The position numbers and the translations under genes were made by a program. Positions 14-58,311 of a stretch of DNA of 64,000 nucleotides are shown here, piece by piece (within the stretch, counting starts at the first letter, position 1; every line of letters begins with the position of its first letter). The notes beneath the pieces were generated by a model, which saw only the letters and a program-made list of their open reading frames with translations, was not told the DNA's origin and did not search any database. The DNA comes from Escherichia coli O127:H6 str. E2348/69 (GTDB lineage: Bacteria; Pseudomonadota; Gammaproteobacteria; Enterobacterales; Enterobacteriaceae): assembly GCF_000026545.1 (NCBI RefSeq), contig NC_011601.1; one strand, 5' to 3'.

Positions 14-901
14 ATGAAAACTGAACGAAAAAACGAGCATTACCTGGCGCTACAACAGGCGTTTGACGCGCCATGGCCTGGGCCTGTAGGAGAGTTAGTG
101 ATGCTGGAAAAAGGCAATATTCACCTGCAGATTTATCCGCATGATGGTGCCAGGATAACCTCGTTAAAGGCATTTGGTTCTGAAGTATTACGCCAATGGC
201 AGCCGCAGCGCAGAGCTTTTCAGTATAGCTGTTTCCCAATGGTGCCGTGGGCAGGGCGACTGGGGAATGCGACGCTGAATGCTGGTGGGCAATGTTATTC
301 TTTACCCGCCAATAAACCACCACATGCGTTGCATGGTATGGCTTGTTACTCAACGTGGGAAATCATCGACAAAACAGCAGATTCCCTGACTTTACGTATG
401 CCCCTGGCTTCACCGTGGCCCTGGCAAGGGGAAGTGATTCAGACTTTTTTGCTGGAGAACGATGCGCTGGTTTTGCAACTGGAAGTCCATTCATATGCCG
501 ATACATTCCCGGCCTCCGCAGGCTGGCATCCGTGGTTTGCGAAAAAGCTGACTCCGCAAAATACAGAATCGTTGCAGGTGCTTTTTGATGCGGACTGGCA
601 AGAAGAAGCGGGTAGTGATGAACTGCCAACTGGAAATCGTATCTCTCCTCAAGTTGGTCCCTGGGATGACTGTTTTGGTTTTTATGACGGGGTGAAGGTT
701 AAGTTACTGTGGCCTGGTAAACTCGCGATGACCATGACCTCTTCTGCAAACAGTCTGGTGGTATTTGATAAACAGCCCGATGCCACCTGTATTAACCCAC
801 TGACTCAGGCACCTAACGCAATAAATCTAACGCCGGAATTTGTGACACCAGATAAGCCGCTGGTCATCGAAACTCGTTGGCAATTTACACCTGAATCTTA
901 A
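14..901 (+). CDS. aldose 1-epimerase family protein (YihR-like)
   Basis: 295-aa ORF; motifs resembling the aldose-1-epimerase fold (FPMVPWAGRL, HALHGMACYSTWEI, AGWHPWF); AGGGA SD-like sequence just upstream of ATG at 14. Confidence 0.6.
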   Translation: MKTERKNEHYLALQQAFDAPWPGPVGELVMLEKGNIHLQIYPHDGARITSLKAFGSEVLRQWQPQRRAFQYSCFPMVPWAGRLGNATLNAGGQCYSLPANKPPHALHGMACYSTWEIIDKTADSLTLRMPLASPWPWQGEVIQTFLLENDALVLQLEVHSYADTFPASAGWHPWFAKKLTPQNTESLQVLFDADWQEEAGSDELPTGNRISPQVGPWDDCFGFYDGVKVKLLWPGKLAMTMTSSANSLVVFDKQPDATCINPLTQAPNAINLTPEFVTPDKPLVIETRWQFTPES

Positions 902-1041
902 CCATTCATCTATTGCGAAAAAGCCAGTGAAATTACTCTGCTTTTTCGCAATCAGCATCACAAGATTACCCTTATTGCCACATAGCCAAACCCATCCTTT
1001 CCCGCTACAGTTAATTTCTTGTGGCGCGAAAGGAGGCAAAA

Positions 1042-1641
1042 ATGCTCTATATCTTTGATTTAGGTAATGTGATTGTCGATATCGACTTTAACCGTGTGCT
1101 GGGGGCCTGGAGCGATTTAACGCGTGTTCCACTGGCTACGCTTAAGAAGAGTTTCCACATGGGCGAGGCGTTTCATCAGCATGAGCGTGGGGAAATTAGC
1201 GACGAAGCGTTCGCAGAGGCACTGTGTCATGAGATGGCCCTGCCGCTAAGCTATGAGCAGTTCTCCCACGGTTGGCAGGCGGTATTTGTTGCGCTACGAC
1301 CGGAAGTGATCGCCATCATGCATAAACTGCGTGAGCAGGGGCATCGCGTGGTGGTGCTTTCCAATACTAACCGCCTGCATACTACCTTCTGGCCGGAGGA
1401 ATACCCGGAAATCCGTGATGCTGCTGACCATATCTATCTGTCGCAAGACTTGGGTATGCGCAAACCTGAAGCACGAATTTATCAGCATGTTTTGCAGGCA
1501 GAAGGTTTTTCACCAGACGATACGGTCTTTTTCGACGATAACGCCGATAATATAGAAGGAGCTAATCGGCTAGGCATTACTAGTATTCTGGTGAAAGATA
1601 AAACCACCATCCCGGACTATTTCGCGAAGGTGTTATGCTAA
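1042..1641 (+). CDS. yihX: alpha-D-glucose-1-phosphate phosphatase, HAD family
   Basis: 199 aa from ATG 1042, preceded by AGGAGG at 1031-1036; N-terminus [10 protein letters not shown](I)VDID is the HAD motif I; the track ORF begins at an upstream GTG. Confidence 0.9.
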
Positions 1642-2507
1642 AAACCATTCAGGACAAAGCCAAGCATCGTACCCGTCCACTATGGGCCTGGCTAAAACTA
1701 CTCTGGCAACGCATTGATGAGGACAACATGACAACCCTGGCAGGTAACCTTGCCTATGTGTCGTTGCTCTCATTAGTGCCGCTGGTTGCCGTTGTTTTTG
1801 CGCTTTTCGCCGCTTTTCCCATGTTTTCCGACGTCAGCATTCAGTTGCGTCACTTTATTTTTGCCAACTTTCTGCCTGCTACTGGCGATGTTATCCAGCG
1901 ATATATCGAACAGTTTGTCGCCAATTCCAACAAAATGACCGCCGTCGGGGCGTGCGGGCTGATCGTCACGGCGTTATTGTTGATGTACTCCATCGATAGC
2001 GCGTTGAATACCATCTGGCGCAGTAAACGAGCGCGACCCAAAATTTACTCGTTTGCCGTGTACTGGATGATTTTAACGCTGGGGCCGCTGTTGGCAGGGG
2101 CCAGTCTGGCGATCAGCTCCTATCTGCTCTCTCTGCGCTGGGCGAGCGATCTCAATACTGTCATCGATAATGTGTTGCGTATTTTTCCGCTGCTGTTGTC
2201 GTGGATCTCTTTCTGGCTGCTGTACAGCATCGTTCCTACCATCCGTGTACCTAACCGCGACGCGATTGTCGGCGCGTTTGTCGCCGCGCTCCTGTTCGAA
2301 GCAGGAAAGAAAGGTTTCGCGCTTTATATCACCATGTTCCCATCATATCAGCTCATTTACGGTGTGCTGGCGGTGATCCCCATTCTCTTTGTTTGGGTCT
2401 ACTGGACATGGTGTATCGTCTTGCTTGGCGCGGAAATTACTGTCACTCTCGGGGAATACCGCAAATTAAAACAAGCTGCTGAACAAGAAGAAGACGACGA
2501 ACCATGA
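1635..2507 (+). CDS. yihY: YihY/virulence factor BrkB family inner membrane protein
   Basis: 290 aa, multiple hydrophobic segments; overlaps the yihX stop; matches K-12 gene order and size. Confidence 0.9.
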
Positions 2508-2941
2508 TTGCATTAATTCAACGCGTAACCCGTGCCAGCGTCACCGTGGAGGGAGAAGTGACGGGTGAAATTGGCGCGGGACTTTTGGTGTTATTGGGTG
2601 TCGAAAAGGATGACGACGAACAGAAAGCAAACCGTCTGTGCGAGCGTGTGCTCGGCTACCGCATCTTTAGCGATGCCGAAGGCAAGATGAATCTCAACGT
2701 GCAACAGGCGGGCGGCAGTGTACTGGTGGTTTCCCAGTTTACCCTTGCCGCAGATACCGAACGGGGGATGCGCCCAAGTTTCTCCAAAGGCGCATCACCG
2801 GATCGCGCAGAGGCGTTATATGACTATTTCGTCGAACGCTGCCGTCAGCAAGAGATGAACACGCAAACAGGACGCTTCGCTGCGGATATGCAGGTATCGC
2901 TGGTCAATGATGGCCCCGTGACATTCTGGTTGCAGGTATGA
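2504..2941 (+). CDS. dtd: D-aminoacyl-tRNA deacylase
   Basis: 145 aa, N-terminus MIALIQRV; 4-bp overlap with yihY. Confidence 0.93.
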
Positions 2942-3927
2942 GCCAGCTTCCAGGGTTGTCACGGGAAACAAGAGAGAGTATCGCTATGTATCACCTTCGG
3001 GTTCCACAAACAGAAGAAGAATTAGAGCGTTACTATCAGTTTCGCTGGGAAATGTTGCGTAAGCCCCTGCATCAACCAAAAGGTTCGGAACGCGACGCGT
3101 GGGATGCGATGGCGCATCACCAGATGGTCGTCGACGAGCAGGGTAATCTGGTAGCGGTAGGCCGACTGTATATTAATGCCGACAATGAAGCGTCCATTCG
3201 CTTTATGGCCGTTCATCCCGACGTGCAGGACAAAGGGTTAGGCACGCTGATGGCGATGACCCTGGAGTCGGTGGCACGTCAGGAAGGCGTTAAGCGCGTG
3301 ACCTGTAGCGCCCGTGAAGACGCGGTGGAGTTTTTCGCCAAGCTGGGGTTTGTTAATCAGGGAGAAATCACCACGCCAACCACCACGCCGATTCGCCATT
3401 TTTTGATGATTAAACCCGTCGCCACTCTGGATGATATTCTTCATCGCGGCGACTGGTGCGCCCAGCTCCAGCAAGCGTGGTATGAACATATCCCGTTAAG
3501 CGAAAAAATGGGTGTGCGCATTCAGCAATATACCGGGCAAAAATTTATCACCACCATGCCGGAAACCGGCAATCAGAATCCGCATCACACGCTGTTTGCC
3601 GGGAGTTTATTCTCGCTGGCTACGCTCACCGGTTGGGGGCTTATCTGGCTGATGCTGCGCGAACGCCACCTCGGCGGAACGATTATTCTGGCGGATGCGC
3701 ATATCCGCTATAGCAAACCGATTAGCGGTAAACCCCATGCGGTAGCCGACCTTGGTGCCTTAAGTGGCGATCTCGACCGTCTGGCGCGCGGACGAAAAGC
3801 GCGGGTACAAATGCAGGTCGAAATCTTTGGCGACGAGACGCCGGGTGCAGTGTTTGAAGGCACGTATATCGTTCTGCCCGCGAAGCCATTTGGCCCGTAT
3901 GAAGAGGGCGGGAACGAAGAAGAGTAG
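2938..3927 (+). CDS. yiiD: bifunctional GNAT acetyltransferase/thioesterase-domain protein
   Basis: 329 aa; size and position after dtd as in K-12. Confidence 0.88.
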
Positions 3928-3944
3928 GGGCGTTTTACTTGACT

Positions 3945-3973
3945 GAAAAGGTTTTCAATCTGAAAACCTTTTC
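3945..3973 (+). terminator. perfect 12-bp stem hairpin (GAAAAGGTTTTC-loop-GAAAACCTTTTC) after yiiD
   Basis: inverted repeat read directly; lies between yiiD (+) and the convergent esterase gene (-). Confidence 0.6.
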
Positions 3974-3990
3974 TGGGCCCTGGTCCGGAG

Positions 3991-4941
3991 TTACCTTCCC
4001 GCTCTCCAGGCAACATCCCGTAGCGCCGATCGCGCAGCCTCACTGATACCACCTAACTGAAAAAATCCGTGGATAACGCCAAGGTAGCGTTGGCAGGTGC
4101 ATTGCACTCCTTGCCCTGTCATGCGGTGATACAACGCTTCACCTTCATCGCAAAGTGGGTCGTATTCAGCGGTAATGATATGTACAGGTGGCAATCCATT
4201 GAAATCATTGCGCCAAATAGGGCTGGCTTCAGGATGCCTGCGTTCAATGCCTGGCAGGTACATCTCAAAGCCGCTCAGTAAAGTGTCGCGTGTGATGATG
4301 TAATCGTGACCATTGCGTATGTAGCTTTCGAAATGCGCAGTCGCATCAAGCATAGGATAAATTAAGATGAGTTGTGCTGGTTGCCACTCGCCAGCACGCT
4401 TCAATCGCAAAGCAGTTACCTGCGCCAGATGCCCTCCCGCACTGTCACCGGCAAGAGTTATTCGTTGTTTATCAACGCCGAGTCGTTCGGCGTGTTGCCG
4501 GACTAATTCTGCACCTCGTTGTGCATCATCATGGGCGGCGGGGAAAGTATGTTCCGGTGCCAGCCGATACTGGACGGCAATAATCCGACATTGCCCGTAA
4601 TAGGCTAACTGGCGCAGCTGGTTGTCGTGAGTTGCGAACCCGCCGCTAACAAAACAGCCACCGTAGTAATAAATTATCGTCGGGAGTAATGTCGGGGCAT
4701 TCAGCGGTGACACTATTCGTAAGGTCATCCCTTCAAGTTCGATAGTCTGAATATCTACCCGCGTTTCTGTCTCACCCGCAAGGACAGCGCTGGCGATATA
4801 GCCCTCTCTGCGCTGCGTAATACTTTGTTGGCGCGATGAGGGGCGACCCGCAGCGATAAACTCTTCGACTAACTCTGCAATTCCTTTTTCCAGTGCCATA
4901 GTAGAACTCATTTTGCTGTATGAATGTACAGTTTTATACAC
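3991..4941 (-). CDS. alpha/beta-hydrolase fold esterase/lipase (Aes/HSL-family-like)
   Basis: GDSAGG nucleophile-elbow motif and YGGCF oxyanion-hole-like motif; true start uncertain (candidates at M1, M11, M15 of the track ORF); not expected at this position from K-12 order. Confidence 0.7.
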   Translation of the reverse strand: MYKTVHSYSKMSSTMALEKGIAELVEEFIAAGRPSSRQQSITQRREGYIASAVLAGETETRVDIQTIELEGMTLRIVSPLNAPTLLPTIIYYYGGCFVSGGFATHDNQLRQLAYYGQCRIIAVQYRLAPEHTFPAAHDDAQRGAELVRQHAERLGVDKQRITLAGDSAGGHLAQVTALRLKRAGEWQPAQLILIYPMLDATAHFESYIRNGHDYIITRDTLLSGFEMYLPGIERRHPEASPIWRNDFNGLPPVHIITAEYDPLCDEGEALYHRMTGQGVQCTCQRYLGVIHGFFQLGGISEAARSALRDVAWRAGR

Positions 4942-5073
4942 CCGTTTTTACTGGATGGATACAGGGAAATTCACGGGCGTGAAAAATCTGGAAAGCGCCT
5001 CGCAAATGTAAAGACAAACCCGGCAGAGACGTGGTTTTGCTGGAGCACTATCAGTAAGCTAGTGGTTTCAAGG

Positions 5074-5090
5074 GTACGTCAATGACGTAC
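5074..5090. promoter_or_regulatory. perfect palindrome GTACGTCA-A-TGACGTAC upstream of the toxin-antitoxin pair; putative antitoxin operator
   Basis: 8-bp inverted arms read directly, about 40 bp upstream of the higB-like ATG; a TATAAT hexamer also sits at 5121-5126. Confidence 0.4.
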
Positions 5091-5127
5091 AAAAAGGATT
5101 GTTACTCTAAGCCAATGGCGTATAATT

Positions 5128-5439
5128 ATGCTCTTCATCGAAACGGAAATTTTTACTGAAGATGTTCAAAAACTGCTGACCGACGATGAATTCAGTCGTT
5201 TTCAGTTTTTCCTGGCCTTGAATCCTGACTATGGTGAGGTAATACCTGAAACTGGTGGGTTAAGAAAGGTTCGATGGGTGTCAGGAGGAAAGGGGAAACG
5301 TGCTGGTGTCAGGGTTATTTACTTTCATCAGGTTAAACATTATGAGATCAGATTACTGCTTATTTATCGTAAGGGTATTAAAGATGATCTGTCTCCCCAG
5401 GAAAAAGCAATGCTCCGGTTGTTAAATACGAGGTGGTAA
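5128..5439 (+). CDS. RelE/HigB-superfamily toxin (type II TA)
   Basis: 103 aa, basic, toxin-first order, stop abuts the antitoxin ATG; sequence style typical of HigB-like addiction-module killers. Confidence 0.7.
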   Translation: MLFIETEIFTEDVQKLLTDDEFSRFQFFLALNPDYGEVIPETGGLRKVRWVSGGKGKRAGVRVIYFHQVKHYEIRLLLIYRKGIKDDLSPQEKAMLRLLNTRW

Positions 5440-5730
5440 ATGGATAAGGCACTTTTTGAGCGGTTGACTCACAGCATGGCCCAGATGAATGAAATTATTG
5501 AAGGAACGCGACAGCCTTCGCGGACTTTTGAAGTTGATGCTATGAAAATCAAAGAAATACGCCGCGCTTCAGGGTTGTCACAATCTAAATTTGCCGATCT
5601 TATTTCTGTAAGCGTAGACACGTTGCGTAACTGGGAGCAGGGGCGACGTTCACCGACCGGGCCTGCAAAGGCTTTGCTGCGAGCGATTGCCAATGATCCG
5701 CAACATGTGCTGCAAGCACTTAACCGTTAG
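5440..5730 (+). CDS. XRE-family HTH antitoxin (HigA-like)
   Basis: 96 aa; HTH signature SGLSQSKFADLISVSVDTLRNWEQGRR; ATG immediately after the toxin TAA with GAGGTGG SD inside the toxin 3' end. Confidence 0.7.
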   Translation: MDKALFERLTHSMAQMNEIIEGTRQPSRTFEVDAMKIKEIRRASGLSQSKFADLISVSVDTLRNWEQGRRSPTGPAKALLRAIANDPQHVLQALNR

Positions 5731-6198
5731 AGGCATGGTTATGCCATACAGAAAGCACCAGCATTCAGAACTCCTGTGAAAGCGGCGTAGTGCCACCTGC
5801 TCAGGAGTTTTGCTATGACCCGTAATCGTGCTGACCGTTGCCACCCTATGATGCGATTAAAAAAACTCATCGTCGCGCCGATGATTGACGTCAATGCTAT
5901 CGGATGATGTCAGGGGTGTTCCGGAAGGAATTCCTTGTTTCCCGAACTGTTACCAACAAAATTATAACGATGAGCAAGTTAAGACCGGTTGGTAGCAGTA
6001 CTGACCGGTCTGTGATGGATGATTAATTTCACCTTAAATCCGGGTGCTGTTAGGATGCTGACATTTTTCGGCTACACCATTCAGATTATGCAATTAAAGA
6101 TCCAATCAAAAAATAAACATCCCTGTATATAATATATTCATAGCACCTATAATTCATTTTGGGCGATAACTAAACCATTTTTGAGTAACAAATGAAAC

Positions 6199-6242
6199 AA
6201 CTGCAACGGACTTATTATTTCTGGAAAACGTCTCGCAAAAAC
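6199..6242. repeat. copy 1 of a ~45-bp motif (AACTGCAAC...TCTGGAAAACGYCTCGCRAAA) upstream of yiiE
   Basis: direct comparison with the second copy at 6647-6691, roughly 75 percent identical by eye. Confidence 0.5.
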
Positions 6243-6334
6243 AAAACAATATGAAAAAATCCGCTTTCGTTAATTAACTTTCCGGCGTAATTTTCGCACA
6301 TACATTAATGAGTAATATATGTAAGGTGGTGGTA

Positions 6335-6553
6335 ATGGCGATGAATACGGTTTTTCTTCATTTATCAGAAGAGGCAATTAAACGGCTGAACAAGCTTCGG
6401 GGATGGCGTAAGGTTTCGCGCTCTGCAATTTTACGCGAAGCGGTAGAGCAATATCTGGAGCGGCAGCAATTTCCGGTGCGTAAGGCAAAAGGCGGCAGGC
6501 AAAGGGACGAGGCAGTTGGTGTTGAAGAACTATGTAAGCAGCATAAGGAATGA
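6335..6553 (+). CDS. yiiE: ribbon-helix-helix (CopG/MetJ-like) small regulator
   Basis: 72 aa from MAMNTVFLHLSEEAIKRL; position between yiiD and fdhE; symbol could equally be the paralog yiiF. Confidence 0.6.
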   Translation: MAMNTVFLHLSEEAIKRLNKLRGWRKVSRSAILREAVEQYLERQQFPVRKAKGGRQRDEAVGVEELCKQHKE

Positions 6554-6646
6554 CAAAAAGATTTTTTCATTCTTGAATATAAAAACAAAAAACCAGATGA
6601 CCTTATTCTGGTATTAATACAAGGTTGTTTTACTTGAACTTATAAT

Positions 6647-6691
6647 AACTGCAACTGTTACATCATATCTGGAAAACGCCTCGCGAAATAC
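6647..6691. repeat. copy 2 of the ~45-bp motif, downstream of yiiE with no ORF following
   Basis: see copy 1; nothing of at least 60 aa lies between it and the fdhE stop. Confidence 0.5.
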
Positions 6692-6776
6692 GAGAGATTT
6701 TGCGGGAATAGCAGGTGTCGTCACACCCTATGAGCTGTAATCCGGGCGACCAGCGCCACCCGGAAAACGTCAGAGA

Positions 6777-7706
6777 TTACTCCCCTTCACCCGGAAACAG
6801 GAACGGGTTAATGGAACTACGGGCATAGCCTTCTTGCTCCATTCGCGCGTCCAGTACCAGAGAGGCGAGGTCATCTGCCACGGCTTCAACTTTCGGTTCT
6901 TTTTCCTGATAAAGAATCTTCAGGTAAGTGCCGCAGTCATCGCAGCTTTCGGCTTTAATCGCGGCCTGTTCGTCATCCAGCGACCAGTAATGCAGTTTGC
7001 CGCTCTGTTCACAGTTGCTGCATTTTACGCGCACTACGTGCCATTCAGTTTCACACAGGTTGCAGCGCAGGTAACGCAGACCCTGAGTGGTGCCAATTTG
7101 CACCATGCTGGACACCGGCATAGAGCCACATACCGGGCAATATTGACGTTGTTCGCCGTATTCAGCGCGGGCTTTGCCGGGGATCAGATTAGCCATCTGC
7201 GCCCAGTAGAGCGACAGCGCAGCCCAGATAAACGGCGCTTTATCGCTGCTGACGGACGAGAAATCAGAGGCAAACAGCGCGCTGGCCATATCTTCCAGCT
7301 CCTGAGTCGATGCCTTCTCCAGATTCTCAATCACTGCCAGCGCCGGGCCGCTCATTTCAGGTTTCAGCTCAGCAATTAGCGCCATCAGCAGCTTTTGCCA
7401 GTGCTTATCACGCGGCAGAACGTGAATATCCAGCGGGGGCTTGCCCTGTGCGCTGGCTTCTTTAATGCGCGCGGTCAGATCCATCTCCAGCGGATGGTCG
7501 TACAGCACCACTTCCTGGGCGTGGGCGATAAGCGCAGCAAAGCGCAGGTAATCACCCAGCGGATTATTTTCTGCCAGCTCGCGCAGACGCTCGGCGCGGC
7601 GGTTGTATAAATTCTTGAGCCGAGGGAACAATAACGGCGGAATCATATCCGCCGTACGTTTCTCGCTCGAACCCAGCTCATCTTGCGGGATTATGCGAAT
7701 ACTCAT
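6777..7706 (-). CDS. fdhE: formate dehydrogenase accessory protein FdhE
   Basis: 309 aa; CxxC pairs; K-12 order. Confidence 0.93.
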
Positions 7707-8338
7707 TCAGCTTTCTTTTCCGTTGTCTTGCGGACCTCACGGTACCAGCGCGGGTGATGTTTCTTTGCCCAGGCGCTGGTCACCCATCCTTCCACCATGG
7801 CGGTAATCGTGCCTTTCACCCAAAGGGCGGCGTAGATATGCACCATGATAACCACAATTAACGCCACTGCGGCAAATGAATGCAGCATTAACGCGAATCG
7901 GATCACCGGGATTGAGAAAGCAGGCGCAAAATAAGGACGCCAGATAATCACGCCGCTCACCAGCAGCAGAACCAGGAAAATAATCGCCGCCCAGAAAACG
8001 CATTTCTGACCGAAGTTATAACGCCCGGTGTCACCTACTTCCTCGTTGACGACGATCTTACGAATATTCTTCGCCCAAAAGATATCATCCCGATTGATTA
8101 GGTTGTGATGCCAGTAACGGAAAAACATGATGATGAACGAGGCAAACATAACCACGCCGACAAACGGGTGCAGAATGCGCGCCAGCTGCGGTGTGCCCAT
8201 GATTTGCATCAACCAGTTGAAGGACGGGAACAAAAAGCCCAGCCCGCTCACCGCCGCCAGGATGAAGCAGAAGGCGGTGATCCAGTGGTTGATACGTTCC
8301 GGCGCGGTGTAGCGCACGATGGTGTCACGTCGTTTCAT
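7703..8338 (-). CDS. fdoI: formate dehydrogenase-O cytochrome b556 subunit
   Basis: 211 aa, four hydrophobic helices, overlaps fdhE and fdoH. Confidence 0.93.
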
Positions 8339-9237
8339 TTGCGCTCCTCGTCTTTCTCTTCGTGCAGATTATTCTCTTCCTCATCCGCACGGTTCGGACC
8401 GACACCCACGTAGTGGAAGATACTGGCTGCGAAGGTAGCCGCAAAGCCAACAGCTGCGAGCGGTTTCCAGATGCCTTTCCAGAATTTCACGGTTTCGCTG
8501 ATTTCCGGGTTCTCCGGCAAGCCATGATACAGATTTGGCTTGTCAGCATGGTGCAGCACGTACATAACATGTGTACCACCGACGCCTGCCGGGTCGTACA
8601 AACCCGCATTGTCGTAACCACGGGTTTTCAGCTCCGCCACGCGCTCGCTCGCCAGCGTTTTCATCGACTCTTTCGTACCGAAGTGAATCGCGCCCGTTGG
8701 GCAGGTCTTCACGCAGGCCGGTTCTTGCCCAACCACCACGCGGTCAACGCACAGCGTACATTTGTAGACGCGGTTGTCTTCCGGGTTGAGGCGCGGAATG
8801 TCGAACGGACAGCCCGCAATGCAATAACCGCAGCCGATGCACTGCTCGGACTGGAAGTCGACGATACCGTTGGAATACTGAATAATTGCCCCTTCCGCCG
8901 GGCACGCTTTCAGGCAGCCTGGATCGGAACAGTGCATACAGCCGTCTTTGCGGATCAGCCATTCCAGTTTGTCGTTCTGCTCCACTTCCGAGAATCGCAT
9001 CACCGTCCACGATTTGGCACTTAAATCATTGGGGTTGTCGTACACCCCAATGTTATTGCCGACGGTATCGCGAATGTCGTTCCACTCTGAACACGCCACC
9101 TGACAGGCTTTACAGCCGATACAGGTGGTAACGTCGATGAGTTTCGCCACTTCTTCCTGGAAGTCCCGCGCCTGAGGCGCGGGGGTCAGACCGTTAGTCG
9201 CGGAACGACGAATGATATCTTGCGATTGATAAGCCAT
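8335..9237 (-). CDS. fdoH: formate dehydrogenase-O iron-sulfur subunit
   Basis: 300 aa, multiple CxxCxxCxxxCP ferredoxin motifs, C-terminal TM helix. Confidence 0.93.
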
Positions 9238-9249
9238 ATGTCGTCTCCG

Positions 9250-12200
9250 TTACACCTTTTCCACATTCACAAGGAAGGACTTAAACTCCGGCGTCTGCGT
9301 GTTCGCATCACCGACGAATGGCGTCAACGTATTGGCAATAAAGCCTTTTTTCGCAACACCTTCATAGCCCCAGTGAATCGGAATACCGATGGTATCGATA
9401 TCTTTGCCGTTTGCTTTCAGCGTGCGAATACGTTTGGTCACTACCGCTTTGGCTTTGATATAGCCACGGTTGGAGGAGACTTTCACAGTATCGCCCTGGG
9501 CAATGCCAAGTTTATTCGCCAGCGACTCCCCGATTTCCACAAACTGCTCTGGTTGCAAAATCGCATTCAACAGCGCGTGTTTGGTCCAGTAGTGGAAGTG
9601 CTCGGTCAGACGATAGGTGGTTCCGACATACGGGAACTTATCGGCTTTACCCAATGCTTCGGCGTCGTCTTTAAAGATACGCGCAGCCGGGTTCGAGATA
9701 ACGTTTGGATGCAGCGGGTTAGTTCCCAGCGGCGTTTCAAACGGCTCGTAGTGTTCCGGGAACGGACCTTCCGCCATCTTATCGAGGGCAAACAGACGTC
9801 CCATGCCTTCCTGCTGCATGATAAACGGCCCTACGCCGCTGCCCGGAGGCGCTGCGCTGTAGTCCGGAATATCCCAGCCGGTCCACTTAGTGCCGTCCCA
9901 TTTCAGCAACTGACGCTTCGGATCCCATGGGTTACCCTGCGGATCTGCGGAGGCGCGGTTATACAGAATGCGGCGGTTTAGCGGCCATGCCCATGCCCAG
10001 CCCAGCGTGTTACCGAGGCCAGACGGATCGGCGTTATCACGACGCGCCATCTGGTTGCCTTCCGGCGTCCAGCTACCGGCGAAAATCCAGCAGCCACAGG
10101 AGGTTGTACCGTCATCGCGCAGTTGGGCGAACGAGCTAAGTTGTTGGCCTTTCTTGACGATAACCGCACCGGTTGCCGGGTCGGTAATATCGGCCAGCGC
10201 TTTGCCGTTGCTCTCCATTGCCACTTCTTCTGAAGATGGCTCATGCGGAATGGCGTAGTTCCAGGTCATGTTCAGCACCTGGTCCGGGTTCGCGCCACCC
10301 TGTTCGGCATACATCTTGCGCAAGCGCAGGAAGATACCGGAGAGGATCTCGCCATCAGTCAGCGCAATCCCCGGGGCGTCCGCACCTTTCCAGTGCCACT
10401 GTAACCAGCGACCTGAGTTAACGATAGAACCGTTCTCTTCCGCGAAGCAGGTCGATGGTAGACGGAACACTTCGGTCTGGATCTTCGACGAGTCAACTTC
10501 GTTCAGCTCACCGTGGTTCTGCCAGAAGTTAGAGGTTTCAGTGTTCAGCGGGTCGATAGTCACGAGGAATTTCAGCTTCGACAGACAGCCGATCACTTTG
10601 TTTTTGTTCGGGAATGAGGCAACAGGGTTAAAGCCCTGGCAGATATAGCCATTGACCTTGCCTTCTTTCATCATCTCGAAGTATTGCAGGACGTCGTAGC
10701 CTTTATCCCACTTCGGCAACCAGTCAAAGCCCCAGCTATTTTCCGCCGTCGCTTTATCACCAAAGAAGGCCTTCATCATAGAGACGAAGAATTTCGGGTA
10801 GTTGCCCCAGTAGTTTACCTGGCCTTCCAGCAGCGGTTTTGGCGTGTTGGCGGTAAGGTAGGTTTGCAGATCGGTCTGCTTCTCGCTTGGCAGCGTCATG
10901 TAACCTGGCAGGCTCTGCGACAGCAGCCCCAGGTCGGTCAGCCCCTGAATATTGGAGTGACCGCGCAGGGCGTTAACGCCGCCGCCAGCCATCCCCATAT
11001 TGCCGAGCAGCAACTGGATCATCGCCATCGTACGGATGTTCTGCGCACCGATGGAGTGTTGCGTCCAGCCGAGCGCGTAAAGGAACGAGGCAGTTTTATC
11101 GTGAGCACTGGTTTCGGCGATGTATTCGCAGACTTTCAGGAATGCGTCTTTTGGCGTACCACAGATGTTTTCAACCACATCTGGCGTGTAGCGGGAAACG
11201 TGCTGTTTCAGCAAGTTCCACACGCAACGTGGATGTTGCAGGGTAGTATCGCGTTTGGCGAAGCCGTTTTCGTCCAGTTCGTAAGTCCAGGTGGACTTAT
11301 CGTACTTGCGTTTTTCCGCGTCGTAGCCGGTGAACAGGCCATCTTCAAAGCCGTAATCCTCACGCACGATCAGGCTAGCGTTGGTATAGGCTTCGGTGTA
11401 TTCGCGGTTGAATTTTTCATTGTTCAGCAGGTACAGCAATACGCCTGACAGGAAAGCAATGTCAGTACCGGAACGGATAGGGGCATAGTAGTCAGCCACC
11501 GCCGCTGTACGTGTAAAGCGAGGATCGATCACAATCAGCTTCGCGCCGTTGTGAATTTTGGCTTCCATCGCCCAGCGGAACCCGACCGGGTGAGCTTCAG
11601 CGGCGTTACCGCCCATCACCACGACGAGGTTGGCATTCTTGATGTCGACCCAGTGGTTGGTCATCGCACCGCGACCAAATGTTGGAGCAAGACTTGCTAC
11701 CGTTGGTCCGTGTCAGACACGCGCCTGGTTGTCGACCGCGAGCATACCCAGCGCGCGGGAGAATTTTTGCGTTAAATAGCCGGTTTCGTTACTCGACGCG
11801 GAAGCACACAGCATCCCGGTGGAGAGCCAGCGGTTAACAGTCACGCCTTCGGCGTTTTGCGCAATGTAGTTCGCATCGCGGTCTTCTTTCATCAGTTTGG
11901 CGATGCGATCAAACGCCTCTTCCCAACTGATTTGCTGCCATTTATCAGAACCTGGCGCACGGTATTCCGGAAACTTCAGGCGGCTTTCGGAGTGGATGAA
12001 ATCCACCAGGCCAGCGCCTTTCGGACAAAGTGCTCCGCGGTTGACCGGGTGATCCGGGTCACCTTCGATATGGAAGATAGATGCTTTGGCGTTTTTTGCT
12101 CCGTCACCGAGGCTGTACATCAACAGCCCACAGCCTACGGAACAATAGGTGCAGGTATTACGGGTTTCGCGGGTGCGCAGCAGTTTATACTGCCGGGTTT

Positions 12201-25699: not shown

Positions 25700-25845
25700 A
25701 TGTACGATCTGTAGGCCGGATAAGGCACTCGTGCCGCATCCGGCATTTGAGCAGGATGCCTGATGCGACGCTGTCGCGTCTTATCAGGCCTACAACTATT
25801 GCCGACCCGTAGGCCGGATAAGGCACTTGTGCCGCATCCGGCAGT
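25700..25845. repeat. BIME: three REP palindromic units between rhaA and rhaD
   Basis: GTAGGCCGGATAAGGC...GCCGCATCCGGCA twice and GCCTGATGCGACGCTGTCGCGTCTTATCAGGCCTAC once. Confidence 0.85.
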
Positions 25846-34632: not shown

Positions 34633-34716
34633 GTAGGCCTGATAAGACGCTATCAGCGTCGCATCAGGCATCCTGCTCAAATGCCGGATGCGGCGTAAAC
34701 GCCTTATCCTGCCTAC
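34633..34716. repeat. REP palindromic units (two) between yiiM and cpxA
   Basis: GTAGGCCTGATAAGACGC...GCATCAGGCA and ATGCCGGATGCGGCGTAAACGCCTTATCCTGCCTAC. Confidence 0.85.
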
Positions 34717-36101: not shown

Positions 36102-36796
36102 GAAGCAGAAACCATCAGATAGCCGCGACCACGCAGGGTTTTAAACCACGGGTGACCATCTTTACGATCCGGCAGTTTACGACGCAGGTTGGAAATGTGC
36201 ATATCGATAGCGCGGTCGAAAGGCGTCAGGCGCTTGCCCAGCACTTCCTGGCTTAAATGCTCACGGGAAACCACCTGACCCAGATGCTGTGCCAGCAAAT
36301 AGAGCAGGGTAAACTCAGTACCGGTTAACTCCAGTGTTTGCCCGTCGAAGCTGGCTTCCTGGCGACCAGGATTGAGACTTAAGGCATCAACTTCCAGTGT
36401 CGGTGAACCGTTGTCGTTGTTTTGCTGTTGTTCGCTCCAGTGCGAACGGCGCAGGATCGCGCGAATACGTGCCACCAGCTCACGATCATTAAACGGTTTT
36501 GGGAGATAGTCATCTGCGCCCAGCTCAAGCCCGAGAACGCGATCAAGTTCACTGCCGCGCGCCGTCAACATAATGACAGGCGTCTGGTGTGTCTGGCGAA
36601 GTGCTTTTAATGTGTCGATACCATTTTTCTTCGGCATCATTACATCAAGCAAAAGTAAATCAATGCTGTCGTCCAGAAGATCAAGCGCCTGTTCCCCATC
36701 GTGGGCAACAATCACGTTGAAGCCTTCCATCTCGAGCAGCTCCTTTAATAGGGAAGTCAGCTCTCGGTCATCATCAACTAACAGGATTTTATTCAT
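36098..36796 (-). CDS. cpxR: envelope-stress response regulator
   Basis: 232 aa, OmpR family; overlaps cpxA. Confidence 0.95.
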   Translation of the reverse strand: MNKILLVDDDRELTSLLKELLEMEGFNVIVAHDGEQALDLLDDSIDLLLLDVMMPKKNGIDTLKALRQTHQTPVIMLTARGSELDRVLGLELGADDYLPKPFNDRELVARIRAILRRSHWSEQQQNNDNGSPTLEVDALSLNPGRQEASFDGQTLELTGTEFTLLYLLAQHLGQVVSREHLSQEVLGKRLTPFDRAIDMHISNLRRKLPDRKDGHPWFKTLRGRGYLMVSAS

Positions 36797-36851
36797 TGTT
36801 TAAATACCTCCGAGGCAGAAATTACGTCATCAGACGTCGCTAATCCATGAC

Positions 36852-36866
36852 TTTACGTTGTTTTAC
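36852..36866 (-). promoter_or_regulatory. CpxR box GTAAA-N5-GTAAA in the cpxR/cpxP divergent region
   Basis: plus strand TTTACgttgtTTTAC is the reverse complement of the tandem GTAAA consensus. Confidence 0.7.
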
Positions 36867-36945
36867 ACCCCCTGACGCATGTTTGCAGCCTGAATCGTAA
36901 ACTCTCTATCGTTGAATCGCGACAGAAAGATTTTGGGAGCAAATG

Positions 36946-37446
36946 ATGCGCATAGTTACCGCTGCCGTCATGGCCTCAACGCTGGCAGTCAGTTCATTAA
37001 GCCACGCTGCTGAAGTCGGTTCAGGCGATAACTGGCATCCGGGTGAAGAACTTACGCAGCGCAGTACGCAGAGCCATATGTTCGACGGCATAAGTTTAAC
37101 CGAACATCAGCGTCAGCAGATGCGAGATCTTATGCAACAGGCCCGGCACGAACAGCCTCCTGTTAATGTTAGCGAACTGGAGACAATGCATCGCCTTGTC
37201 ACCGCAGAAAATTTTGATGAAAACGCTGTGCGTGCACAGGCAGAAAAAATGGCGAACGAGCAAATAGCTCGTCAGGTTGAGATGGCAAAAGTCCGCAACC
37301 AAATGTATCGCCTGTTAACGCCGGAGCAGCAAGCGGTTTTAAACGAGAAACATCAACAACGAATGGAGCAGTTGCGCGACGTGACGCAATGGCAAAAAAG
37401 TTCATCGTTGAAGCTATTGAGTAGTAGCAACTCACGTTCCCAGTAG
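36946..37446 (+). CDS. cpxP: periplasmic Cpx pathway inhibitor/adaptor
   Basis: 166 aa from [21 protein letters not shown]; LTxxQ motifs. Confidence 0.93.
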
Positions 37447-37454
37447 TAAACCCT

Positions 37455-37512
37455 GTTTTCCTTGCCATAGACACCATCCCTGTCTTCCCCCACATGATGT
37501 GGGGGTTTTTTT
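37455..37512 (+). ncRNA. cpxQ: cpxP 3'UTR, expected source of the 3'UTR-derived sRNA CpxQ
   Basis: about 58 nt between the cpxP stop and its terminator T-run; assignment rests on the known K-12 locus arrangement, boundaries approximate. Confidence 0.45.
37487..37512 (+). terminator. cpxP rho-independent terminator
   Basis: CCCCCACATGATGTGGGGG followed by TTTTTTT. Confidence 0.85.
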
Positions 37513-37593
37513 ATCCTCAATTTGCCTGCTGCTTAATGCATTGCAGATGATTTGCTTCCGTTATACTACCGTCAGTTGATAGCGGGAGTATTT

Positions 37594-38496
37594 ATGAATC
37601 AATCTTATGGACGGCTGGTCAGTCGGGCGGCGATTGCTGCGACGGCGATGGCTTCGCTGCTATTGCTGATTAAAATTTTTGCATGGTGGTATACCGGGTC
37701 GGTGAGTATTCTCGCCGCGCTGGTGGATTCGCTGGTGGATATCGGCGCGTCGTTGACGAATTTACTGGTGGTGCGATATTCCCTGCAACCTGCCGACGAT
37801 AATCACTCGTTTGGTCACGGTAAAGCTGAGTCTCTCGCGGCGCTGGCGCAAAGTATGTTTATCTCCGGTTCGGCACTATTCCTGTTTTTGACGGGTATTC
37901 AACATCTGGTATCTCCAACACCGATGACAGATCCAGGCGTCGGGGTTATCGTGACAATTGTGGCGCTAATTTGTACGATTATCCTTGTCTCGTTTCAGCG
38001 TTGGGTGGTGCGCCGGACGCAAAGCCAGGCGGTGCGGGCTGATATGCTACATTACCAGTCTGATGTTATGATGAACGGCGCAATTCTGCTGGCGCTGGGG
38101 TTGTCCTGGTACGGCTGGCATCGCGCCGATGCTCTGTTTGCATTGGGGATCGGCATCTATATTTTATATAGCGCGTTACGCATGGGATATGAGGCGGTAC
38201 AGTCATTACTGGATCGCGCATTGCCTGATGAGGAACGGCAAGAAATTATTGATATCGTGGCTTCCTGGCCGGGTGTTAGCGGCGCTCACGATCTTCGCAC
38301 GCGGCAGTCAGGGCCGACCCGCTTTATTCAGATTCATTTGGAAATGGAAGACTCTCTGCCTTTGGTTCAGGCACATATGGTGGCGGATCAGGTAGAGCAG
38401 GCTATTTTACGGCGTTTTCCGGGATCGGATGTGATTATCCATCAGGACCCCTGTTCCGTCGTACCCAGGGAGGGTAAACGGTCTATGCTTTCATAA
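37594..38496 (+). CDS. fieF: cation diffusion facilitator (ferrous iron/zinc efflux)
   Basis: 300 aa from [14 protein letters not shown]. Confidence 0.9.
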
Positions 38497-39694: not shown

Positions 39695-39793
39695 GGCCTG
39701 ATGCGCTTCGCTTATCAGGCCTACATGAATTCTGTAATCTATTGAATTTGCAAACTTTTGTAGGCCGGATAAGGCGTTTGTGCCGCATCCGGC
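39695..39793. repeat. REP palindromic units after pfkA
   Basis: GCCTGATGCGCTTCGCTTATCAGGCCTAC and GTAGGCCGGATAAGGCGTTTGTGCCGCATCCGGCA. Confidence 0.85.
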
Positions 39794-52917: not shown

Positions 52918-53448
52918 TTACGCTTTGTAGCTTAATTCTTCGATGGTGTGGAAATGGTTGGTATAGATGCAAATGTCGCCTGCAATATCCAACGCCTTTT
53001 CAGCAATTTCACGGGCGCTAAGTTCAGTGTTTTCTAACAGCGCGCGCGCCGCAGCCTGGGCGTAAGGGCCGCCAGAGCCGATAGCAATAAGATCGTTTTC
53101 TGGCTGCACCACGTCACCGTTACCGGTGATGATAAGCGATGCAGTTTCATCCGCGACTGCCAGCAGTGCTTCAAGTTTGCGCAGCATGCGATCGGTACGC
53201 CAGTCTTTCGCCAGCTCAACGGCGGCTTTGACCAGATGGCCCTGATGCATTTCCAGTTTACGTTCAAACAGTTCGAACAGCGTAAAAGCATCCGCAGTAC
53301 CGCCCGCAAAGCCCGCGATGACTTTGTCGTTGTACAGACGGCGGACCTTTTTCACGTTGCCTTTCATTACGGTATTGCCCAACGTGGCCTGACCATCACC
53401 AGCGATGACCACATGGCCGTTACGGCGTACGCTTACTATAGTTGTCAC
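52918..53448 (-). CDS. hslV: ATP-dependent protease subunit HslV
   Basis: 176 aa, [20 protein letters not shown]. Confidence 0.95.
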
Positions 53449-53516
53449 GAGCTGACCCCTTGGTTACGAATACAGAGTACAAACCCCGTACAAAAGTACG
53501 GGGCATAATGCAATTA

Positions 53517-55697: not shown

Positions 55698-58055
<2,358 letters not shown>

Positions 58056-58059
58056 TTAG

Positions 58060-58311
<252 letters not shown>

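Follow-up and report, generated by a model that had tools for sequence, protein, structure and literature searches.

The 64,000-nucleotide stretch of DNA analyzed here, hereafter referred to as the window, carries on its plus strand, at positions 37456 to 37512, a segment that according to its sequence is CpxQ, an already known small RNA (sRNA) that is intact at this locus. The best explanation for the observations described below is almost certainly that the window encodes CpxQ as a Cpx-induced, RNase E-released and Hfq-dependent regulator of the cell envelope. The present analysis provides the position of the gene, its identity with an annotated RNA, its terminator, its deep conservation with compensatory changes in the stem, a CpxR-box motif and its complementarity to three targets, while the literature is the source for processing by RNase E, dependence on Hfq, the targets and the physiology, all of which would apply here by analogy. 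The locus comprises the following elements.

36946-37446, plus strand: cpxP coding sequence, 166 aa plus TAG, providing the parental mRNA of CpxQ (ORF listing).
37447-37455, plus strand: linker from the cpxP stop to the CpxQ 5′ end, 9 nt, UAAACCCUG (from the K-12 cpxQ annotation).
37456-37512, plus strand: CpxQ sRNA, 57 nt, UUUUCCUUGCCAUAGACACCAUCCCUGUCUUCCCCCACAUGAUGUGGGGGUUUUUUU (aligned to K-12 b4716).
37456-37468, plus strand: 5′ seed, CpxQ nt 1-13, UUUUCCUUGCCAU, same as in K-12.
37469-37485, plus strand: predicted hairpin AGACA/UGUCU, 5 bp, with loop CCAUCCC (minimum free energy [MFE] fold).
37487-37505, plus strand: Rho-independent terminator hairpin, 8 bp, with a UGA loop (fold and terminator scan).
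37506-37512, plus strand: U7 tail, the expected Hfq-binding 3′ end; T8 in K-12.
37594-38496, plus strand: fieF, the neighbor downstream of CpxQ.

Genes are arranged in the order cpxA and cpxR (both on the minus strand), cpxP (plus strand), a 147-nt gap and fieF (plus strand), and since fieF adjoins the locus, no insertion follows CpxQ in the window. RefSeq places cpxP identically in E2348/69 and K-12. The start of the gene reads ATGATG (36943-36948), of which the annotation takes the second ATG, and its TAG stop codon (37444-37446) is directly followed by an in-frame TAA (37447-37449), forming tandem stops. Over positions 36800 to 37620 (821 nt), the window shows 100% identity to E. coli E2348/69 (O127:H6, EPEC), and 5425 of 5426 complete E. 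coli genomes contain this cpxP-fieF stretch. A core of 31 nt (37460-37490) has a single occurrence in the window and none in 100 shuffles.

The initial annotation expected the CpxQ locus in the cpxP 3′ untranslated region (UTR), and alignment to K-12 b4716 bears this out, with the RNA lying on the same strand, 9 nt past cpxP and in the expected gene context. The strong terminator followed by seven T residues was also found as described, i.e., hairpin CCCCCACATGATGTGGGGG at 37487-37505 and T7 at 37506-37512. The sRNA had been attributed to about 60 nt lying between the stop codon and this terminator. While the 66-nt interval does hold CpxQ, the distance from stop to hairpin is only 40 nt (37447-37486); the hairpin and the U-tail are parts of the sRNA itself, and the mature RNA corresponds to 37456-37512.

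In K-12, RefSeq annotates the ncRNA gene cpxQ (b4716) at 4106330-4106387, with a length of 58 nt and a start 9 nt after cpxP. Checking the window against this annotated CpxQ showed that 56 of 57 aligned bases are identical and that the seed is intact. The two differences are a C-to-A change at loop base 37497 and a tail of U7 in the window instead of the U8 found in K-12. As the initial annotation had stated, nothing suggests disruption: all seed and stem positions are as in K-12, and nothing is inserted or deleted. Sequence around the putative cleavage site is also the same as in K-12. The CpxQ RNAs of E. coli K-12 (b4716) and Salmonella (Chao & Vogel 2016; Grabowicz et al. 2016) share with that of the window their locus, strand and distance from the stop codon, as well as the 5′ seed, the second conserved stretch and the terminator stem.

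The exact 91-nt allele of the window was found in 60 of 5426 matching E. coli records and the K-12 allele in 1053, most other E. coli records being less than 100% identical to either allele query. The two intact-site genomes that were sampled, O121:H19 16-9255 and strain 272, have the loop A together with a tail of at least 8 T residues. Given that loop A is the state in most other species among the matches listed, the C of K-12 is probably derived. Of 107 orthologous sequences among the matches listed, 94 have a T8 tail and 8, including the window, have a T7 tail. The window allele, with its loop A and U7 tail, would be expected to behave like the K-12 and Salmonella RNA.

Conservation was examined by scanning species-representative genomes with a two-block pattern, which retrieved at least 120 loci, 12 of them chance matches in unrelated phyla. 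This pattern demands both conserved blocks, and lineages with a diverged CpxQ escape retrieval. One locus (L100) was dropped at extraction because no upstream T-run was present, and the tallies given here refer to 107 species plus the window, i.e., 108 sequences, with a species range extending from Escherichia to Rosenbergiella, Edwardsiella, Serratia and Erwinia. Once the chance matches are set aside, 104 of the 108 loci listed are immediately preceded by a cpxP homologue, and the remaining 4 are found at locus edges with fieF downstream. Identity of the CpxP protein to that of the window ranges, among the same matches, from 98% (E. albertii) down to 41% (Rosenbergiella).

Among the matches listed, TTTTCCTTGCCATAGACACCATCCCTGTCTTCCCC hardly varies over the 107 further Enterobacterales species; the 9-nt spacer, on which the pattern placed no constraint, reads TAGACACCA in 104 of 108 sequences; the two bases that precede the stem, likewise unconstrained, are TT in 107 of 108; and the CCCTG/TTTT context at the putative cleavage site is kept in nearly all 107 species. 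The terminator, for its part, is represented by at least 41 distinct hairpins, all of which fold. Its stem measures 6 to 9 bp in all of the 80 distinct orthologous sequences among the matches listed, and the third pair from the loop is AU in 29, UA in 17, GC in 15 and CG in 18 of these 80. Such a pattern is the expected signature, as read from the alignment, of a single-stranded part under strong purifying selection and a stem maintained by compensatory change. The cpxP 3′ UTR was reported to be more conserved than cpxP itself (PMC9438474), and our cross-species set agrees.

These data bear on whether the segment could be a plain cpxP 3′ UTR with its terminator that does not act in trans in this strain. 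Insulation of fieF calls for a terminator in any event. Yet the 31 nt preceding the hairpin are useless for termination and are nonetheless near-invariant in species where CpxP is only 41 to 60% identical (among the matches listed). Moreover, the RNA is annotated in K-12 and was captured with Hfq in E2348/69 (PMC8550237). We thus consider a plain terminator extremely unlikely and retain the assignment to CpxQ.

Folding of 37447-37512 gave -17.4 kcal/mol, corresponding to a z-score of -2.44 relative to shuffles, and the terminator scan reported 8 pairs, 6 of them G-C, with a 3-nt loop. Together with its flanking bases, the predicted hairpin at 37469-37485 would constitute the second conserved stretch and a putative second seed. 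Positions 37469-37485 are invariant across species among the matches listed and, because of this invariance, covariation speaks neither for nor against the helix.

The 3′ part of cpxQ is also a phage attachment site, which in the window is empty, in contrast to lysogens in which it is occupied.

37470-37516, no strand assigned: vacant attB core for WPhi-type P2-like (Peduovirus) phages, which shares with CpxQ the 43 nt at its 3′ end.

This core is carried by 62 phage records, with an exact 43-nt copy of 37470-37512 among the matches listed; carriers with 43 of 43 nt include WPhi, L-413C, fiAA91-ss and several Yersinia and Salmonella peduoviruses. In WPhi, the core copy is located between ogr and int. 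Approximately 832 of 5425 complete E. coli genomes (about 15%) lack a contiguous match across the cpxQ locus, and the split genomes that were sampled (O157:H7, O55:H7, WL7562 and SCU-171) carry a P2-family prophage between cpxP and fieF, oriented in these cases with int adjoining cpxP and ogrK adjoining fieF. Examples of split loci are L133 (NZ_CP038383.1 5351800-5390000), L003 and L006. In O55:H7 DEC5E, a 47-nt direct repeat, GACACC...TTTTTTTTATC, whose copies are 31,287 bp apart, flanks a prophage of about 31 kb (31.3 kb), with a complete CpxQ at attL and only its 3′ part at attR. In the lysogen SCU-171 (L007, NZ_CP054363.1 3082044-3082408, approximately 150-215), the CpxQ terminator at attL is phage derived, CCCCCACGTGACGTGGGGG, and displays a compensatory change from A-U to G-C as well as a C that breaks the U-tail (GTCTTTTTTTT). 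Phage sites in the 3′ ends of other RNA genes (P2 at the cyaR sRNA gene; tRNA and tmRNA genes) are similar in that the core likewise duplicates the 3′ part of the RNA gene, which integration rebuilds at attL.

Beyond E. coli, integrase genes or their remnants follow CpxQ in 9 to 10 of the 107 species representatives (among the matches listed). WPhi-type integrase genes were seen about 135 nt past CpxQ in other genera (L107, L012, L020, L018, L094, L079, L070, L045, L034 and L082), for which reason the attachment site is used across Enterobacterales. The integrase is intact and accompanied by C and cox in Serratia (L107) and Acerihabitans (L012), and the remaining loci contain fragments. The exact E. 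coli/WPhi-type terminator hairpin was also observed in Edwardsiella hoshinae (L036), Pantoea sp. 1.19 (L019) and Erwinia sp. 198 (L086); their congeners (L032, L026/L053 and L043/L070) have different stems, and fieF is not directly downstream in L036, L019 and L086. With regard to past phage replacement at these three loci, no P2-family genes were found in the downstream sequence examined.

The cpxP-fieF site has been listed for Wphi1 in E. coli W, beside 'cyaR RNA', both being P2-type (PMC3032704). That report, published in 2011, names the site by its flanking genes, as CpxQ was then undescribed. We found no paper tying the cpxP-fieF attachment site to CpxQ in the open-access literature, whose coverage is incomplete, including for the primary WPhi papers.

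Phage attachment offers another way to account for the conservation described above, as P2-like phages carry the same 43 to 47 nt, would repeatedly overwrite the host copy and could in this manner keep the site uniform without any sRNA function. The exact core copies in 62 phage records, the splitting of the site in about 15% of complete E. coli genomes with P2-family prophages in the sampled cases, the integrases or remnants after CpxQ in other species and the phage-supplied terminator variant at the SCU-171 attL all point in this direction. However, the 5′ 14 nt of CpxQ (37456-37469) are located outside the core and are equally invariant, whereas the stem of the terminator, which falls within the core, varies more between genera than any other part. 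In addition, attachment and sRNA roles are not mutually exclusive; phages often pick conserved RNA 3′ ends and rebuild them. It is therefore very unlikely that phage attachment is the main source of the conservation, and the function of CpxQ as an sRNA remains the preferred reading.

The attachment core takes in the 3′ two-thirds of CpxQ, with its second conserved stretch, terminator and U-tail. Whether this overlap has regulatory consequences is a separate matter, and we consider such consequences unlikely, although two forms can be envisaged. Phage or prophage transcripts ending at the copy located after ogr could give rise to a CpxQ-like RNA that binds Hfq, lacks the 5′ seed and either competes with CpxQ or mimics it. 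Alternatively, phage integration and loss could swap host CpxQ terminators, as at the SCU-171 attL, and alter the dosage of CpxQ in lysogens.

An Rfam scan had been proposed as a further check on the assignment, and it gave no sense-strand match to CpxQ and only a subthreshold antisense match to Hrs1. Rfam 15 applied to the whole window at the gathering threshold returned nothing at the CpxQ locus, and it contains no sense-strand CpxQ family; the inability of the scan to confirm CpxQ thus reflects the database rather than the locus. Under permissive settings, family RF02628 (Hrs1) matched the minus strand at 37441-37512 with 42.4 bits and an E value of 4e-7, the gathering score being 56.4. Sense-strand candidates RyhB, Esr41, NsiR1 and OmrA-B (E values of 0.39 to 5.7) were rejected as generic hairpin-plus-U-tail matches driven by the terminator. 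Elsewhere in the window, matches above the gathering threshold were obtained at 11660-11718 (minus), 25714-25790 (plus), 34636-34713 (minus), 39717-39758 (minus), 53446-53503 (minus) and 58040-58092 (plus); these six comprise SECIS_3, two naRNA4 (REP-type), ES036, a ClpQY promoter element and an L31 ribosomal-protein leader, all ordinary here.

The Hrs1 match would, if taken at face value, imply a functional RNA on the minus strand, where RF02628 is the sole Rfam match with a low E value, albeit under its gathering score. Several observations argue against this orientation. The RF02628 consensus opens with A7 followed by a hairpin, i.e., a terminator read backwards, and no T-run follows the hairpin on the minus strand. 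The model reaches 82.7 bits in Erwinia persicina and 72.8 bits in E. aphidicola (L043 5697-5771 and L039 1298-1373), in both cases on the strand opposite to cpxP and CpxQ. By contrast, hrs1 of Erwinia amylovora was described as encoding an Hfq-dependent RNA located between cpxP and fieF, on their strand and with a Rho-independent terminator (PMC4070566 Table 1). The chance that the functional RNA lies on the minus strand is consequently negligible, and RF02628 appears to model the Erwinia CpxQ orthologue in reverse complement.

Based on its position between cpxP and fieF, the shared strand, the terminator and Hfq dependence, Hrs1 is the Erwinia CpxQ orthologue. Hrs1 (Zeng & Sundin 2014; RF02628) resembles CpxQ in locus, strand and terminator and aligns with it once reverse-complemented, but it is annotated as 74 nt and reaches further 5′ than CpxQ. 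Because RF02628 is tuned to Erwinia, the E. coli sequence falls below the gathering threshold (42.4 versus 56.4 bits). Annotation based on Rfam consequently misses CpxQ, the family being both reverse-complemented and Erwinia-specific.

Upstream of cpxP, a motif scan revealed a candidate element for control by the Cpx system.

36852-36866, no strand assigned: CpxR-box-like tandem repeat TTTAC-N5-TTTAC in the cpxR-cpxP divergent promoter region (motif scan).

This repeat is the reverse complement of GTAAA-N5-GTAAA, the CpxR box consensus, and it has a single match in the 64-kb window compared to 0.05 expected by chance. It is presumed to be the element through which the Cpx system controls the cpxP-CpxQ transcript. 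No sigma-70-like promoter was detected by motif scan in 36700-37700, which would fit with CpxQ being made by processing alone.

Activation of cpxP by CpxR-P has been described. RNase E, together with Hfq, is known to cut the cpxP mRNA near the stop codon and thereby free CpxQ (PMC9438474). In the window, we infer that the RNase E site lies between G37455 and U37456. The half-life of CpxQ exceeds 16 min in E. coli (PMC10250213), and RIL-seq performed in EPEC E2348/69 found CpxQ on Hfq and in chimeras with the perA and bfp mRNAs (PMC8550237). Other sRNAs of this type, namely SdhX, SroC, NarS and MicL-S, likewise share the terminator of an mRNA, possess a 5′-monophosphate end made by RNase E near a stop codon and bind Hfq (PMC9438474). 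Unlike them, CpxQ is conserved over its full length and originates from a monocistronic, stress-induced mRNA (PMC9438474, PMC8550237).

Reported targets of CpxQ include nhaB, skp, agp, ydjN, fimA and cfa, on which it acts by blocking ribosome binding or through RNase E decay (PMC9438474, PMC4817254, bioRxiv 10.1101/271551, PMC10250213); in E. coli, it acts on skp (PMC4817254). CpxQ has two conserved seeds (bioRxiv 10.1101/271551), which were placed here from secondary literature and, for the second seed, from our own reading of the sequence. The 5′ end, UUUUCCUUG, includes C5, C6 and U7, and repression of cfa is abolished in the CpxQ M2 mutant, in which these three bases are altered (bioRxiv 10.1101/271551).

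To evaluate complementarity, RNAduplex was run on CpxQ nt 1-31. Against nhaB, skp and cpxP, between 40 and 55% of shuffles paired as well, and cfa alone stood out. Since these duplexes were uninformative for nhaB, skp and cpxP, we adopted seed-restricted duplexes, using nt 1-13 with target sequences from K-12 and shuffled seeds for comparison. The predicted pairing with skp at -18 to -6 reached -15.2 kcal/mol (fraction of shuffled seeds pairing as well, 0.004), that with K-12 nhaB at -17 to -5 from the ATG reached -15.1 kcal/mol (0.014), and that with cfa at -136 to -127 reached -14.1 kcal/mol (0.018). The predicted cfa site is consistent with the published C5/C6/U7 mutant. CpxQ was reported to repress nhaB in E. 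coli, and the site in the translation initiation region (TIR) was stated not to be conserved in this species (PMC10250213); the TIR pairing predicted here in K-12 contrasts with that statement. No significant pairing was predicted by RNAduplex between the CpxQ seed and the cpxP 5′ region, which according to Grabowicz et al. is required for the effect of CpxQ on CpxP (PMC4817254).

Taken with the published work, these elements outline how the locus would operate. Under envelope stress, active CpxR would drive the cpxP promoter, and transcription would stop at 37487-37512, the intrinsic terminator. Hfq would first guide and then block RNase E, whose cleavage just past the stop codon, putatively at 37455/37456, would yield a stable 5′-monophosphate RNA of about 57 nt. 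The single-stranded 5′ seed and the second conserved stretch of this RNA would base-pair with transcripts that encode envelope proteins (nhaB, skp, agp, ydjN, fimA and cfa). Such pairing would stop translation or promote RNase E decay, and the load on the inner membrane would fall.

Within the Cpx inner-membrane stress response, CpxQ constitutes the noncoding arm, and the copy carried by the window is intact. In addition, cpxQ doubles as an integration site for P2-like phages and is split in about one-seventh of complete E. coli genomes, an overlap that matters whenever cpxQ is scored as present or disrupted from assemblies.
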